Source of the DNA: Nitrospirota bacterium
Lineage (GTDB): Bacteria; Nitrospirota; UBA9217
Assembly (NCBI GenBank): GCA_963754875.1
Contig: CAVWHO010000002.1
Location: forward strand, 1 to 64,000
Length of the DNA stretch: 64,000 bases
Direction of reading: 5' to 3'
Shown: positions 1,696-59,383 of the stretch, in pieces
Position numbering within the stretch: the first letter of the stretch is position 1
Layout: every line of letters starts with the position of its first letter
The notes under the pieces: generated by a model
Databases searched by the model: none
What the model saw: the letters and a program-made list of their open reading frames with translations, nothing else
What the model was told of the DNA's origin: nothing
Program-made: the position numbers and the translations under genes

Positions 1696-2901
1696 TCAGG
1701 GCGTAGCGGGTCCTTGCGGTTTGTTGTCTCCCTGCTGGCCGCCCGGTCCCTTCTTCTTTTTGCGCCAGAACCGCCGTTTTTTCTTCTTGCCGGACTTCTC
1801 GCCTTCCTGCTGCGGCTGCTCAGCTTTCTGTGCCTGCGGTTGGGGTTTCTCCTGCTTTGACTTCTGTTGTTGCTGCTGGCGCTCCCGGGGCAGGACCGCC
1901 CGACGGCTGTTGCGGTTTCCTCTCCTGTTGCTGATCTCTTCTCTTTTCAGGCCTGCCGTCGCCCTTCTGCCCGCCTTCTTTCTGCTTTTCCTTCCGGTGT
2001 TCCTGTTGTTTACGGTCTTCCTGGCGTCTCTTTTCTTCAGCAAGCCGACGCTCCTCAGCTCTTTCCGTTCCTCTGAAATGCGCCGTTCTTCCTCTTCTCT
2101 CTTTTCTCTGACTACGGCCTCTTTCATGCCTGCGACATCTTTTTTAATCTCGTCGTACATTTCATATTCATAGGACAGACAGCAGAGCAAGCGGCCGCAG
2201 ACGCCGGAGATCTTCGCCGGGTTGAGCACCATCTCCTGTTTTTTGGCCATCCGTATCGACACAGGCTCGAAGTTTTTCAGGAACGCCGCGCAGCAGAGCT
2301 CCCTGCCGCAGGGTCCGAACCCCCCGATCAGGCGCGCTACATCCCTGACGCCGATCTGGCGCATCTCGATTCTGCTGTGGAGCTTATAGGCAAGATCTTT
2401 CACCAGTTCGCGGAAGTCAATCCTCGACTCGGAGAAGAAATAAAAGGTGGCACGCGAAGCATCAAAGGAGTATTCCACGCGGATCAGTTTCATCGGCAGT
2501 TCCCGTTCGGCGATCATGTCCTGCGCAGTCTTAAAGGCCTCTGCTTCGAGCCCTTTGTTCTTCTCGTCCCGTGCGAGATCATCCCCTGTTGCCTTGCGCA
2601 GTACCTTTCTCAGCACCTTCGGCGCCTGTTTGTTTCCGTTGGCAGAAGCGTCCGGCGCCGTTTCACTGGGTGACTCTTCTTCAATCTGAAGCCCATGCTC
2701 CTGCTGAACAGGTTCCGGGGCCGGGGCCGGCGGGGCAATTTGTTTTTTAAGGCGCACAACCGTGGCAAGCCCCTGCCCCCGCTCGGAATCTACAATAATC
2801 TTGTCGCCGATGGCGACCTCCAGATCGGTTGCGTCAAAATCATAGACCTTCCAGTTGTCGCGAAAACGCACGCCTGCTATTTTTATCATCGTATCTGTCA
2901 T
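1696..2901 (-). CDS. ricT: PSP1/YaaT (RicT) family protein with a long low-complexity charged C-terminal tail
   Basis: RIDFRELVKDLA, RIEMRQIGVRD, GPCGRELCC, KISGVCGRLLCCL; conserved tmk-holB-yaaT-metG order. The tail may contain compensating indels. Confidence 0.9.
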   Translation of the reverse strand: MTDTMIKIAGVRFRDNWKVYDFDATDLEVAIGDKIIVDSERGQGLATVVRLKKQIAPPAPAPEPVQQEHGLQIEEESPSETAPDASANGNKQAPKVLRKVLRKATGDDLARDEKNKGLEAEAFKTAQDMIAERELPMKLIRVEYSFDASRATFYFFSESRIDFRELVKDLAYKLHSRIEMRQIGVRDVARLIGGFGPCGRELCCAAFLKNFEPVSIRMAKKQEMVLNPAKISGVCGRLLCCLSYEYEMYDEIKKDVAGMKEAVVREKREEEERRISEERKELRSVGLLKKRDARKTVNNRNTGRKSRKKAGRRATAGLKREEISNRRGNRNSRRAVLPRERQQQQQKSKQEKPQPQAQKAEQPQQEGEKSGKKKKRRFWRKKKKGPGGQQGDNKPQGPATP

Positions 2902-3004
2902 CGGTTTACCGGTTTTAGTCCTCTGTTTTGGTATTTACTCAGGCCTGCGCCTGAATGCAATGAAGCACGCCGCGATACACTGAATTCCGTCACTCGAATT
3001 TGTT

Positions 3005-3986
3005 TCATACTCTTCCCAGTTTGAAGAACAGGTTCTCCGCAACCAATTGCGCGCTCACACGGCGGTCGAGCAGGCTCTGGCTGGCTGCAAACAACTCCAA
3101 GTCCATAAACATCTGGGAAAGCGGTACCCGTTCTCCCCAGTTCCGGTACTGTTCTCCTGCCTCTGCAAACACGAGCAGCCGCTCGTCTTTCGTCTCCCGA
3201 TAGACCATGGCGTCACGCAGACACTCGATTCCGATCACGAGCAGGCGATCGAAGCGGTCGCGGTCCTTCGCAAATGTTTCAGCCAGGGCCAGCGTCTCGC
3301 CGGGACCCATCTGCGGCAGCCCGGACCAGAGGTCCATCAGTTGGCTCCGCTCCGTCTTTTCCTGTTCCACGTCCATGTCGAGGCCCCGCCCCATGCTTCC
3401 CTGCGCAAGCGCCGCGACAAACCAGGCGTCTGCTTCCGAAAGCCCTCGTTTTCGCATAAGCGCCTGAGCAAGCGTCTGTCGCGAAAGCGGTTGAAACCGT
3501 ATTTCCTGGCACCGTGAACGGATCGTCGGCAGCAGGCTCTGCGGCAGAGAGGTAATCAGACACGATCAGCGCTTCTCCCGGCGGCTCCTCCAGGGTCTTC
3601 AAAAAAGCATTGGACGATGCCGCGTTCATGCGATCGACGCCGTCGACGATCAGGGTCTTCTTCATACCCTCAAAGGGCTTAAGCGCAAGGTCCGACTGCA
3701 CCTGCCTGACTTGGTCGATCTTGATCTCTTCACCGTCAGGGACAAGAAGGTGAATGTCGGGATGCCCGCCGGTTGCTACCTTGCGGCATGAAGGGCAGAC
3801 ATCGCAGCCCCCCGCCTCGCTGGCATTTTGGCAGTTCACCGCGGCTGCGAGCGCGAGAGCTGTCATTTTTTTCCCGATCCCCGCTTCGCCGGAAAAAAGA
3901 TAGGCATGGGCGAGGGTCTTGTTCGACAGTGCCCGTTTTAAAATAGTGACCGGTTTTTCGTGTCCCTCTATGGCAGCAAACGACAT
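3005..3986 (-). CDS. holB: DNA polymerase III delta' subunit (one apparent frameshift near 3560)
   Basis: HAYLFSGEAGIGK, CDVCPSC, HPD, NAFLKTLEEPP; continues LITSLPQSLLPTIRSRC in the next frame. Confidence 0.93.
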
Positions 3987-6636: not shown

Positions 6637-8166
6637 TTACAGCATCTCAAGCGCTTTCTTGAGCGCTTCCGCCTTCTGGAGCGTCTCGAAATATTCCCGC
6701 GTGGGATCGGAGTCGGCCACGATGCCTGCCCCTACCTGAATATGCGCCTTCCCGTCTTTCACGACAAAAGTCCTTATGATGATGTTGAGATCCATGTCCC
6801 CGCTGTTCGAAATGTAACCGATTGACCCGGTATAAGGCCCCCTGGCAACCGGTTCCAGCTCATCGATGATCTCCATGCACCGAACCTTGGGTACACCCGT
6901 GATCGTCCCCCCCGGGAACACGGCGCGGACGAGATCAAAGGCGTCTCTTCCCGCCTTGAGCGTACCGCGCACATTGGAGACGATATGGATCACGTGGGAA
7001 TAGTCCTCAACAACCATCATTTCATCGACCGTTACGGTACCGTAGTCGCACACTTTGCCGAGATCGTTGCGCTCGAGGTCGAGGAGCATGATGTGCTCGG
7101 CGCGTTCTTTCTCATTGGTCAGAAGTTCTGCGGAGAGTTCCCGAGTTTCTGCGTGGTCGCTCCCCCGCCGCCGGGTGCCCGCAATCGGCCGCGTATCGAC
7201 GGCTCCCTCGTGAAGGCGGACGAGACGTTCGGGCGAAGAGCTCACCAGTTGCAGATCGCCGAAGTCCAGGTAGGCGGCAAAAGGAGAAGGGTTGATCTCG
7301 CGCAGGATCTTGTACAGGCGGAGCGTGTCGGCATCGCCGATTGGCAGGGAAAGCCGCTGGGACAGGTTCGTCTGGTAAATGTCTCCCGCGGCGATGTACT
7401 CTTTGCTTCGCCTGACCATGGCCTCGAACTCGGCCTGTGTCAGGTTGGACGTTACCGGAACCGGCTGTATCACCTTTTTTTTGTCGATTGCCGCCGCATC
7501 TCCCGACGTCGCCGCTCTCCGCAAAGCATCGGCGACGGCAGTCAGCCTATCTACGGCTGTATCGTAAAGGCCGTCCCATTGCTCCGGCCCGGGTCGGCGA
7601 AATCCCAGCTCTTGTTCACGCGCGCCGGGGTTCACGATCACCCAGGTTTTTTTCAGAACGTGATCGAAAGCAACAACAAGGTCGACGAACACGAAATACG
7701 CTTCCGGGATGTCAAGGTCAACCGCCGCTTTGCGCGGGAGCTTTTCGAACTGATGAACAAAATCGTAGGAAAAAAAACCGACTGCTCCGCCGGTAAACGG
7801 CGGCAGACCGGGAACGCGCCCGGTCCGGTAATTCTCCATAAGCTCCCGCAGTTTTTTGATCGGTTTCCGCTTCATCGTTGCCCGCTTGCCGTATTTCCCG
7901 GCAGGAGTCTCCGGCAGAATGAGTTCGACTGTCTCGCCCCGCGATTTGAAGATCAAATAAGGGTCCGCTGCGACGAAAGAATACCTGCCGATCTTGTCGT
8001 TCATTCTCGCACTTTCAAGAAGCACGGGAAAGCCCAGGTGCCGCAAGGCCTCAAGCGCGGCGAGCGGGGTCAGCGCCGGCGCATCGATTTCAACGGCAAC
8101 GGGGTCAATCGTACCGGACAGAAGATGACGTAAAAATTCTTCCTTTGAGGGGTTGATTATTTCCAT
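6637..8166 (-). CDS. pabB: Chorismate-binding enzyme, aminodeoxychorismate synthase component I / anthranilate synthase I family
   Basis: LLES, SSSPERL, TRPIAGT, KERAEH, FPGGTITGVPK, GAGIVADS; PIAGT is TrpE-like, so pabB versus trpE is not settled. Confidence 0.75.
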   Translation of the reverse strand: MEIINPSKEEFLRHLLSGTIDPVAVEIDAPALTPLAALEALRHLGFPVLLESARMNDKIGRYSFVAADPYLIFKSRGETVELILPETPAGKYGKRATMKRKPIKKLRELMENYRTGRVPGLPPFTGGAVGFFSYDFVHQFEKLPRKAAVDLDIPEAYFVFVDLVVAFDHVLKKTWVIVNPGAREQELGFRRPGPEQWDGLYDTAVDRLTAVADALRRAATSGDAAAIDKKKVIQPVPVTSNLTQAEFEAMVRRSKEYIAAGDIYQTNLSQRLSLPIGDADTLRLYKILREINPSPFAAYLDFGDLQLVSSSPERLVRLHEGAVDTRPIAGTRRRGSDHAETRELSAELLTNEKERAEHIMLLDLERNDLGKVCDYGTVTVDEMMVVEDYSHVIHIVSNVRGTLKAGRDAFDLVRAVFPGGTITGVPKVRCMEIIDELEPVARGPYTGSIGYISNSGDMDLNIIIRTFVVKDGKAHIQVGAGIVADSDPTREYFETLQKAEALKKALEML

Positions 8167-8249
8167 GGGTAAGGTGATGAAATTGTAGAGACAATTCCCC
8201 GGATGGTCAAGATAATTCTGAGAAAATATTCACGCTTATCGCCTGAAAA

Positions 8250-8309
8250 TGTGGTATTATATTTATAGAGAAACATTGGAAGAGAACGAAACAAGTTGGT
8301 CTTTGAAAA
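8250..8309 (+). promoter_or_regulatory. Extended -10 promoter followed by a boxA-like antitermination element
   Basis: TGTGgTATTAT at 8250-8260; TGGTCTTTGAAAA at 8297-8309 resembles rrn boxA. Confidence 0.55.
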
Positions 8310-8647
8310 GAGTGAATGGATAAGAGGGCGTTGCCGAACCAGCACCGATAGGTGTACAGATGATAACCCGTTATAAAGGGGATCAGGCAACGCGCGAATG
8401 AAAACCGAGGCCGGAGCGAAAGCTGCAAGTTGAGCAGTCAGTTCCCCGGTTTGTTTCACAGGCGACCATTCGAGCGCAAGAGCCAAAACCCCTAAGCCAC
8501 GGGGATACGCGGGACGAGGCCAAAGGCCACATATACACGACGCTTCACAGGGTCTGCAAAGCAGAGCCGCAGAAGCAGGATGTACCTCCCGCAGTACACG
8601 TGGCCCAGCGGAATATCAATACCGGTTCGCAGGCAGCGCCTTTTTTT
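8267..8647 (+). ncRNA. Candidate large structured non-coding RNA, family not recognised
   Basis: Promoter and boxA upstream, long closing helix 8322-8350/8614-8645, many internal hairpins, U7 tract at the end, no credible ORF. Confidence 0.6.
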
Positions 8648-8812
8648 GTTTCCCCACCATTTTCTCCCTCTTTTCTTGCCAGAAAGACACTCCCGCTCTG
8701 AAGCCAATTGACCGATCGACCTCGTTGATTTGCATGAACAAACCTTCGCAAGCCGCCTTGTACCATCTTCCTCTCGACAAAACTCGTGAAATATTCTAAA
8801 CTGCTTTTCGAA

Positions 8813-8858
8813 AGCCGGTTGTTCCCGCTGTTTTTAAACAGGAATCCGGCTCCTTTTT
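8813..8858 (+). terminator. Terminator-like hairpin upstream of the thioesterase gene
   Basis: AGCCGG..TTCC..CTGTTT-TT-AAACAG GAA.CCGGCT followed by CCTTTTT. Confidence 0.45.
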
Positions 8859-8924
8859 GTATCGAAGACGCTGACCCGCGACAGAACCATTCGCGGATGA
8901 CAAAATCCTGAAAGGAGAACCGGA

Positions 8925-9317
8925 TTGAACCATTCGATGGATGTGCACATCTATTACGAGGACACTGACTGCGGCGGGGTAGTTTACTACGCCAACTACC
9001 TGCGCTACATGGAACGGGCGAGGACAGAATACCTCGCTTCAAAGGGCTATTCGGTCAAGAAACTGATGGATGAGGGCACGATCTTCATGGTGCTGCGCGC
9101 TGAAGTAGATTATCGCTCCCCTGCCCGCTACGGCGACACGATCGAGATTGAAACTTGGGTCAAGGACGTAACGCGTGTTACCATGATTTTTGAGCATATC
9201 ATGCGGGACAAAACGTCCCGGCGAGTTTTTGTGGAATGCAGGACAAAAGTCGTCTATGTCGACGCTCAGGGAAAGCCCAAGCGTCTGTCTGACGAGTATG
9301 TGGAAAAGGTAAAATGA
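8925..9317 (+). CDS. ybgC: YbgC/FadM-family acyl-CoA thioesterase
   Basis: IYYEDTDCGGVVYYANYLRYMERARTE; AGGAG RBS before a TTG start. Confidence 0.88.
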   Translation: MNHSMDVHIYYEDTDCGGVVYYANYLRYMERARTEYLASKGYSVKKLMDEGTIFMVLRAEVDYRSPARYGDTIEIETWVKDVTRVTMIFEHIMRDKTSRRVFVECRTKVVYVDAQGKPKRLSDEYVEKVK

Positions 9318-58600: not shown

Positions 58601-59383
58601 CTACATCTTGTAGTTAGCCATACTTATTCCGGAAGGACCTCTCCGTTTTCGTGTATTATTGAGGATCACTGTTAATAAGCAGGCAGGTATAAAATAGAGT
58701 AATTCGTTAAAAAATATTTCTCCAAAATTCATTTTCTGTTTTTCCGATTTTACGAACTTTTCCAAGTCATTAAATGTATCTTGTTTTTCAATAGTTATGT
58801 TTTCTTTAAAATTGAAATTGTCTTCCCAAAAGAAACTTACAACAGGCGAAGATACATATAGGTTGAGATAATATTTGGGGTATTTTAATAGTGCAGGCGT
58901 TTTATGGGTAAAAACCAAGGTCCCATTATTGTCCCTCTCAATTAGCCATCGGTGGTGATAATAGCCAGTATATTGCCATTTTTCTATTCCCCTTGTAGTT
59001 TCGAGCGCCCTTGATGGAATCTCAATATATCCTCTTTTGCCGATTCTAACGATTTCACTACATACCCAGATTGGGTCTCTAATATCTTCTAATGTATGGG
59101 AGCAAAATACAAAATCTACTTCCTTGTCTTTGAAAGGGAACGGTGTCCTGTCACACAAATCCCTCACTATCCAATCGGTCTTTGAAAAACATTCTTTCTC
59201 ATCAGCATCGCCAATAGCATTATTTATTGATCTTGTTTCATAGGGAAGAATGTCAATTATCTTATTTGCCCTTTTAAGGGGTTGTACCCACCCACCAATA
59301 TCAACTACCAAGTCGTGCGGATTAATTTTTGACAAAATCTCCTTGCTGTCTATTTGCATTAGATTACACTCCTCCACTTTCAT
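58601..59383 (-). CDS. Class I SAM-methyltransferase-domain protein, low GC
   Basis: VVDIGG, DLCDRTPFPFKDKEVDFVFCSHTLEDIRDP, GYIEIPS, HHRW. Confidence 0.8.
   Translation of the reverse strand: MKVEECNLMQIDSKEILSKINPHDLVVDIGGWVQPLKRANKIIDILPYETRSINNAIGDADEKECFSKTDWIVRDLCDRTPFPFKDKEVDFVFCSHTLEDIRDPIWVCSEIVRIGKRGYIEIPSRALETTRGIEKWQYTGYYHHRWLIERDNNGTLVFTHKTPALLKYPKYYLNLYVSSPVVSFFWEDNFNFKENITIEKQDTFNDLEKFVKSEKQKMNFGEIFFNELLYFIPACLLTVILNNTRKRRGPSGISMANYKM

Follow-up and report, generated by a model that had tools for sequence, protein, structure and literature searches.

A structured non-coding RNA in every sampled genome of an uncultured Nitrospirota family and the boxA-type element in its leader

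The first 64,000 nucleotides (nt) of contig CAVWHO010000002.1 in the genome assembly of a Nitrospirota bacterium (GCA_963754875.1; GTDB lineage Bacteria, Nitrospirota, UBA9217), hereafter the window, contain a gap between a leftward gene that ends at position 8166 and a rightward gene that starts at 8925, and this gap holds the gene for a large structured RNA. The RNA gene extends from 8252 to 8647 on the plus strand and consists of an extended -10 promoter element, a leader of ~58 nt, a core of ~320 nt and a tract of seven U residues (U7). The two ends of the core (8325 to 8642) pair with each other in a helix denoted P1, and together with the leader the RNA comprises ~380 nt. We consider it probable that this is a stand-alone gene for an abundant, folded non-coding RNA (ncRNA) that is likely transcribed in the manner of ribosomal RNA (rRNA) and likely acts in trans as a stable RNA. 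A conserved, covarying structure is real, the RNA is confined to one uncultured family of Nitrospirota and is present in every sampled genome of that family, and we rate it as a new class matching no catalogued family. A preliminary description of the window, made from the sequence alone, had proposed an abundant untranslated RNA with a boxA leader and had named the findings that would contradict this proposal, that is, membership in an Rfam family, the lack of covarying homologs, the lack of a transcript, or many scattered copies; the search for each of these came out negative.

The fold was analyzed in an alignment of 51 homologs, 24 of which were obtained by genome searches and 27 from among 48 matches to a sequence pattern; a weak third copy on one contig, duplicate loci, and 21 pattern matches that repeated included sequences were left out. 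The consensus structure, that is, the RNAalifold prediction minus one lone pair, comprises 77 base pairs in 15 helices, with 89.7% paired compared to 32-45% when the 3' partners were slid by 1-3 columns. Compensatory changes on both sides, for which the preliminary description had suggested looking, were detected for 40 pairs (208 cells), and none of the 500 column shuffles reached any of the five structure measures. On the level of the single sequence, the plus strand of 8265-8650 folds with -135.7 kcal/mol (z = -5.1), none of 100 dinucleotide shuffles folding as well, and the minus strand yields z = -4.1. The orientation of the promoter and the U-tract points to the plus strand for the RNA, in agreement with the counts of G-U and A-C cells (274 vs 150).

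The core consists of a stalk, formed by P1, a side hairpin (P2) and the helices P3b and P3, that bears two domains, A and B (Table 1). P1 had been described as a closing helix of roughly 30 base pairs (bp); the helix is there, but it comprises 16 bp, its 3' strand being interrupted by a bulge of 3 nt (GCA), and 96-97% of its cells are paired. The nine inner pairs of P1 are nearly invariant, compensatory changes being found in three pairs of the GAACC/GGTTC part, and the inner sequence is retained even in distant paralogs, which suggests that the P1 sequence itself is recognized. P2 shows no covariation because its stem is invariant. P3 is 92% paired, and P3b displays coupled changes by clade (UGAUA/UAUCA, UGGUA/UACCA and UUUUAAC/GUUAAAA), its duplex beating the shuffled mean in 45 of the 51 sequences. 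A mutual-information screen for pseudoknots was dominated by the clade signal and produced no Watson-Crick tertiary pair except for the lead that gave P3b. The core also includes many invariant unpaired nucleotides and multi-helix junctions. Among the internal stems that had been read from the sequence alone, CACC/GGTG, CTGC/GCAG, TCTGC/GCAGA, GCTTC/GAAGC and GCGG/CCCG belong to the consensus, whereas AGC-gaaa-GCT, AAACCG/CGGTTT, a local CCCC/GGGG hairpin and GGCCAC/GTGGCC fall outside it, their bases having other partners in the consensus or lying within an insert; the pairing GCGGGA/TCCCGC, taken for a possible pseudoknot, turned out to be nested in the consensus as GCGG/CCCG. An insert of the form GGCC-AAA-GGCC (8514-8525) was seen only in the window's genus, in 9 of the 14 genomes sampled from it.

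No match at the gathering score was obtained across the 64-kb window in a cmscan search of Rfam 15 (4227 families), and a permissive scan of 8100-8950 (E <= 10) returned only five chance matches of 11.7-15.4 bits, to eukaryotic small nucleolar RNA or long ncRNA models or to a Streptococcus small RNA model. Literature searches found no published description of the RNA, with the supplements of large motif surveys, which could hold it, lying outside the scope of these searches. The RNA could, in principle, be a divergent version of a known housekeeping RNA, such as RNase P RNA, transfer-messenger RNA (tmRNA), 6S RNA, signal recognition particle (SRP) RNA or a piece of rRNA, or else a Y-RNA-like partner of the Ro protein, given that its size is close to that of RNase P RNA and tmRNA and that its ends are paired in a conserved helix as they are in Y RNAs and 6S RNA. 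We give this possibility scarcely any credence, in line with the preliminary description, which had set the RNA apart from the first four: no Rfam match to these families appears even at E <= 10, and other contigs of the same genome encode RNase P RNA (273 bits), 6S RNA (104 bits), tmRNA (199 bits) and SRP RNA (75 bits), all above the cut-offs. Furthermore, ARAGORN detects neither tmRNA nor transfer RNA (tRNA) at the RNA locus, 16S rRNA is full length in relatives, and the TROVE (Ro) protein is encoded in one of 27 family genomes and not in that of the window.

A small protein-coding gene or a mobile repeat, in particular a miniature inverted-repeat transposable element, is an explanation to which we assign next to no weight. 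Stretches of 56-108 codons free of stops do occur in some frame of every homolog, but the longest open frame shifts in strand and extent among the 51 homologs (28 on the minus strand and 23 on the plus strand), four local open reading frames (ORFs) tested against Pfam gave no match at E <= 0.1, and the substitutions preserve base pairs. As originally stated, there is no credible ORF, and no reading frame is conserved. The synteny is fixed, and the RNA stretch is present in a single copy (one match) in the window's genome (4.3 Mb, 90% complete), not in many scattered copies as expected of a mobile element.

Among other genomes of the window's family, BLAST searches identified the RNA in 21 of 24, compared to none of 16 genomes from ten other Nitrospirota families, and a profile search added full-length homologs in the more distant genera. 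A strict pattern that requires both ends of the RNA matched 47 loci among 185,579 species genomes (one per species), all in records titled Nitrospirota, Nitrospirae, Nitrospiria or Nitrospiraceae. A covariance model built from the consensus structure of the 5' half only (172 positions, 31 pairs) detected the RNA in 27 of 27 sampled family genomes (104-168 bits) and in all of five further ones, including the genome of the window's genus that BLAST had missed; two of these five hold only divergent copies (38-50 bits). By this model, the RNA is present in 32 of 32 sampled genomes of the family. In 123 genomes of 21 other Nitrospirota families, the same model gave four marginal matches (18-21 bits), which we dismissed as chance: they lie in protein-like sequence and lack both the 3' strand and the U-run. 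Relatives carry 1-3 copies, either at the same locus or as distinct paralogs; one contig contains two full copies separated by ~170 nt, both of which have a promoter and a boxA of their own, followed by a weak third match downstream, and in another genome two copies are 3 kb apart. Such extra copies in some genomes are typical of genes for stable RNAs.

Parts of the RNA stretch are found in 20 indexed sequencing runs, six of which are recorded as RNA-seq. Positions 7900-9100 were compared, at 80% likeness, with contigs assembled from four metatranscriptomes, each of a different study (wetland, microbial mat, peat and soil). The cover was limited to 8325-8637, with summed word depth of up to 863, 57, 18,988 and 40, and both 7900-8309 and 8638-9100 were uncovered except for 1-3x at 8925-9006 in one run. 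This cover of the RNA only, at high depth, bears out, as far as computation allows, the earlier proposal of an abundant RNA. The listed contigs derive from relatives (80-99% identity) and measure 92-327 nt, a length that would be expected if the RNA is small and discrete; those aligned to the window end by 8637. Some of them extend 25-45 nt upstream of P1 into a diverged leader, indicating that at least part of the RNA keeps the leader, and two of these overhangs start with boxA-like letters. In one RNA contig (234 nt, depth 19), the 5' end of P1 comes immediately after the 3' end of the RNA, which includes the U-tract and 2 nt more; the contig stems either from a relative in which two gene copies abut or from an RNA that is circular or ligated. 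In another RNA contig, a tRNA-like 3' end (a GGTTCGAATCC-type T-arm and an acceptor strand) precedes P1 by 5 nt, at about window position 8327. Linkage to a tRNA was rejected: in none of 19 genomic loci did ARAGORN find a tRNA within ~1.5 kb, so this contig comes from a relative with a different arrangement or is an assembly chimera.

The extended -10 element, the boxA-type element and the U7 end all lie where the preliminary description had placed them. The promoter pattern TGnTAnnnT is found 52-103 nt upstream of P1 in 50 of the 51 homologs; a simple two-hexamer scan makes no call at the extended -10 because a good -35 element is lacking. The word TCTTT[GC]A occurs 23-33 nt before P1 in 39 of the 51 copies and at 48 nt in one more, and the TCTTT core is kept in 50 of the 51, with the remaining leader sequence diverging freely among the homologs. 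The sequence GGTCTTTGAAAA at 8298-8309 of the window is the same 12-mer as the boxA in all six rRNA leaders examined in five relatives, where CATGGTCTTTGAAAAC is located 121-127 nt before 16S rRNA and ~30 nt after a TTGACA-17-TAnnAT promoter. Given this identity and the conserved location, the leader boxA is likely a NusB/NusE site and, because the same boxA precedes the rRNA operons of the family, the RNA is likely made like rRNA; the initial suggestion of rRNA-like transcription or processing is supported as far as computation allows. The genome of the window encodes both NusB (domain, 143 bits) and Rho (RNA-binding domain, 124 bits).

Several observations bear on the usage of boxA in this lineage. 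In 11 of the 24 genomes of the family that were examined, including that of the window, RNase P RNA is preceded by a boxA-like word, GTTCTTT(C/G)A, at a distance of 12-16 nt from its 5' end (two truncated matches were left out), so that boxA leaders may serve several stable RNAs in the lineage. No boxA-like motif was detected in the 160 nt upstream of the 6S, tmRNA and SRP RNA genes of the window's genome, and a screen of that genome for further boxA-led non-coding regions yielded five ORF-poor candidates, none of which has the layout of a promoter, boxA and structured RNA. Within the window, boxA-like 11-mers are also found at 59125-59135 and 59177-59187 on the plus strand, 52 nt apart, in an A+T-rich stretch that we judged, on reading, to be coding on the minus strand; they probably occur there by chance. 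In addition to boxA, the six rRNA leaders have in common a conserved block of ~45 nt (TTGCGCCCTC.TTCG.CGGTAAACCTCGGGCAAAACCTCGAAG), which is found 200-300 nt ahead of 16S rRNA and is flanked by an upstream promoter (AAAAAGTCTTGACA...) on one side and the promoter next to boxA on the other.

At the other end of the RNA, the GGCAGCGCC of P1 is followed at once by U7, with the partner strand of the stem located ~285 nt upstream. A T-run directly follows GCC in 23 of 24 homologs that were found without a requirement on the 3' end, the remaining one reading GCCTCTTTTT; in one further copy, detected by the 5'-half model only, the T-run is offset by 5 nt. A different organization is seen in six diverged paralogs from five genomes, which are ~300 nt long and score 31-50 bits with the 5'-half model; a search for this class in the window's genome found none. 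The P1 sequence is preserved in these paralogs, along with a few inner motifs, but P1 directly adjoins the extended -10, leaving no leader. A leader boxA is lacking in all six, as is a U-run behind P1, and each is followed by a separate, ordinary hairpin terminator 25-45 nt downstream. The neighbors of the diverged paralogs are unrelated. We take this as a hint that the boxA leader goes together with the P1 plus U-tract ending, and the leaderless form with a separate terminator. A frameshifted gene (2195-3059 on the plus strand of its locus) follows one of the paralogs at a distance of ~350 nt; its N-terminus, ...YKYRLYP, is typical of TnpB / IS605 OrfB and makes it look like a transposase-type gene, and it is probably a coincidental neighbor.

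Taken together, these features are compatible with the following scenario. RNA polymerase would start ~7 nt after the extended -10 element, and boxA, ~30 nt into the transcript, would recruit NusB/NusE along with NusA, NusG and SuhB. The resulting complex would render elongation over the untranslated RNA resistant to Rho and hold the 5' leader near the polymerase, such that the 5' strand of P1 would be at hand when the 3' strand emerges ~285 nt later, and the sequence-invariant 16-bp helix could form in a manner that parallels the leader-trailer helix of pre-rRNA. P1 and U7 would then jointly make up an intrinsic terminator. Invariant P1 and the conserved junctions and loops may be protein-contact or processing sites of a ribonucleoprotein, and the finished RNA would act in trans, most likely bound to protein. 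For pre-rRNA, the leader-trailer helix is reported to be essential for 16S rRNA, with boxA contributing 2-3 fold (PMC10250234). A more far-reaching version of this scenario, to which we attach a limited chance, is that the RNA is an extra, lineage-specific housekeeping RNA, in which tethering of the 5' end by Nus factors lets a helix spanning 285 nt snap shut as a terminator, and the product forms the core of a ribonucleoprotein, or a ribozyme, of a new kind on which all members of the family depend.

We regard it as improbable that the RNA is catalytic, as a ribozyme that processes itself or acts on some other substrate, and not a scaffold or regulator bound by protein. Its size of ~320 nt, the multi-helix junctions and the numerous invariant unpaired nucleotides are typical of large catalytic RNAs, and the head-to-tail RNA contig could reflect a circular or ligated form, but no Rfam ribozyme model matches, and the head-to-tail joint comes from that single contig, which could equally derive from two abutting gene copies.

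A number of observations weigh against the interpretation of the locus as a boxA-dependent, rRNA-like transcription unit. The TCTTT[GC]A form is missing from 11 of the 51 leaders, 10 of which carry the variants TCTTTCT, TCTTTAT, TCTTTTT, TCTTTGT or TCTTTAA, and one second copy that lacks boxA altogether still has P1 and the U-run; thus, boxA is not needed for this type of ending. The same copy is a counter-example to the association of leader and terminator type, which, being one evolutionary contrast, is weak. The rRNA boxA had to be taken from relatives because the window's genome has no assembled 16S rRNA. The motif KNTCTTTGAAA occurs 46 times in that genome, compared to 19 for the reversed control, and a loose pattern combining promoter and motif gives 25 matches, compared to 36 when the genome is reversed. 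By itself, the motif is therefore no rarity, and the case for boxA rests on its conservation and its identity to the rRNA leaders. At the 3' end, a scan for local-hairpin terminators (loops of 3-8) finds no sites in 8000-9000, a terminator stem that encloses ~285 nt is unusual, and covariation is unable to prove most of P1 because the helix is almost invariant. Finally, all the RNA evidence consists of assembled contigs of relatives, which cannot give the ends, the strand or the true level of the RNA.

Some of these points would also be explained if the RNA were real but the leader motif were a different signal that merely resembles boxA, such as a processing site, the site of another protein or a promoter-proximal element. 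The shortness of the motif and its frequency in the window's genome, together with its incomplete conservation, speak for this alternative. We nevertheless regard it as doubtful, considering that the same 12-mer is present in all six rRNA leaders, in the usual place after the promoter, that the TCTTT core is retained, at constant spacing from P1, in a leader that otherwise diverges, and that the motif fits the U-rich core of the published gamma-proteobacterial boxA consensus, GYTCTTTAANA (PMC5725501).

If the leader motif is indeed boxA, the locus can be compared with other transcripts that carry this signal. The leaders of some arrays of clustered regularly interspaced short palindromic repeats (CRISPR) contain boxA; the transcripts of these arrays are long, untranslated and otherwise open to Rho. 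The resemblance to an rRNA operon leader is close: a strong promoter is followed by the boxA of the lineage ~30 nt later and then by the 5' strand of a long-range helix, which closes a large structured untranslated RNA ~285 nt later, and the extra copies and the abundance are shared as well. The product here, however, is a 320-nt RNA unrelated to rRNA, no boxB or boxC was identified at the locus, and the closing helix abuts a U-tract and would end the transcript, whereas in rRNA it is a processing stem inside a long operon. The locus possesses those features of an rRNA-type antitermination unit that can be tested by sequence. Outside rRNA, a working boxA precedes suhB, located in the 5' part of a non-rRNA transcript (the 5' untranslated region); boxA there is reported to repress a protein-coding gene, and the accompanying boxA survey left ncRNAs out of consideration (PMC5725501). 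The RNA described here, in contrast, has no ORF and is a discrete structured molecule.

With the housekeeping RNAs of RNase P, tmRNA, 6S and SRP, the RNA shares an own promoter, a terminal helix, high abundance, mostly one gene per genome and a clade-wide presence, but those RNAs are universal, whereas this one is confined to a single family, and all four are separately present in the window's genome. With the raiA motif RNA, OLE, ROOL, GOLLD and HEARO, it shares considerable length, an intricate and well conserved fold, often high abundance, and a function that is at most partly known; those RNAs have Rfam models, unlike the present one, the host range of which is one Nitrospirota family, and none of them is known to carry a boxA leader. 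Few bacterial ncRNAs longer than 300 nt are this conserved in structure, and those that are understood are ribozymes or the cores of large ribonucleoproteins. The present RNA is universal in a widespread uncultured lineage of soil, peat and groundwater and is among the deeply covered sequences of environmental RNA libraries. It offers a clear case of the rRNA boxA signal placed before a discrete structural RNA other than rRNA. Comparison of the boxA-led form with the leaderless paralogs provides, moreover, a direct handle on the idea, so far studied mainly on pre-rRNA, that tethering by Nus factors aids the formation of long-range helices during transcription.

Table 1 Features of the RNA locus and its flanking genes (window coordinates).
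Feature	Position	Strand	Evidence and remarks
Divergent upstream gene, chorismate-binding enzyme, anthranilate / aminodeoxychorismate synthase component I type	6637..8166	-	Pfam Chorismate_bind 1.5e-91, Anth_synt_I_N 1.3e-33
Extended -10 promoter TGgTATTAT	8252..8260	+	TG 8252-8253, TATTAT 8255-8260; predicted start ~8266-8268
5' leader, ~58 nt	8267..8324	+	extent as predicted from the promoter
boxA-type element TGGTCTTTGAAAA, likely NusB/NusE site	8297..8309	+	identity to rRNA leaders, conserved place
P1, 5' strand AGGGCGTTGCCGAACC	8325..8340	+	pairs with 8624-8642
P2 hairpin CACC-GATA-GGTG	8343..8354	+	4 pairs, 96.6% of cells paired
P3b and P3, 5' strands (TGATA .. CCGTT)	8361..8372	+	P3 8368-8372 with 8607-8611; P3b 8361-8365 with 8614-8618
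Domain A, six stacked helices, tip formed by the conserved hairpin GCUGC-AAGUUGA-GCAGU	8377..8492	+	19 of 27 pairs compensatory; apical helix 9 of 13
Domain B, helices AGCCACGGG/CACGTGGCC and GCGG/CCCG, and highly conserved hairpin GCTTC-ACA-GGGTCTGC-AAA-GCAGAGCC-GCA-GAAGC	8495..8605	+	17 of 25 pairs compensatory
P3 and P3b, 3' strands (AGCGG AA TATCA)	8607..8618	+	consensus fold
P1, 3' strand GGTTC-gca-GGCAGCGCCTT	8624..8642	+	consensus fold
U7 tract directly after P1, likely transcript end	8641..8647	+	sequence, homologs
Downstream 4HBT-type thioesterase (ybgC-like)	8925..9317	+	Pfam 4HBT_2 1.3e-20

The genes that flank the RNA include, in addition to the chorismate-binding enzyme and the thioesterase (Table 1), a small-domain methyltransferase (Pfam). 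In the related genomes with a BLAST-detected RNA, tblastn places a homolog of the chorismate-binding enzyme as the divergent upstream neighbor in 22 of 22 cases, and the thioesterase downstream in 12 of the 22, all of the window's genus. Across genera, the downstream ORFs, compared for 16 loci, belong to several groups that are unrelated to each other; the thioesterase is not linked to the RNA outside some genera, and a search for a conserved partner gene beside the RNA found none, the downstream ORFs varying among genera. The RNA lies on the same strand as the thioesterase gene, 278 nt before it, and its divergent neighbor is invariable, which could suggest that it controls the thioesterase-methyltransferase genes in cis, as a riboswitch or attenuator in their leader, or is a regulator associated with the gene for the chorismate-binding enzyme. 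We consider either role very unlikely: the core ends in P1 and U7, the downstream gene changes between genera, extra copies of the RNA occur in tandem or 3 kb away without such genes, the contigs from RNA libraries match the RNA and leave the downstream gene uncovered, and the RNA does not overlap the upstream gene. The gene for the chorismate-binding enzyme has a promoter-like site of its own, TTGACC-17-TACAAT, at 8182-8210 on the minus strand, which corresponds to a conserved GGTCAAGACAATTCT block that is seen on the plus strand upstream of the RNA promoter in many homologs, and a compact divergent control region of ~85 nt is common to both genes.

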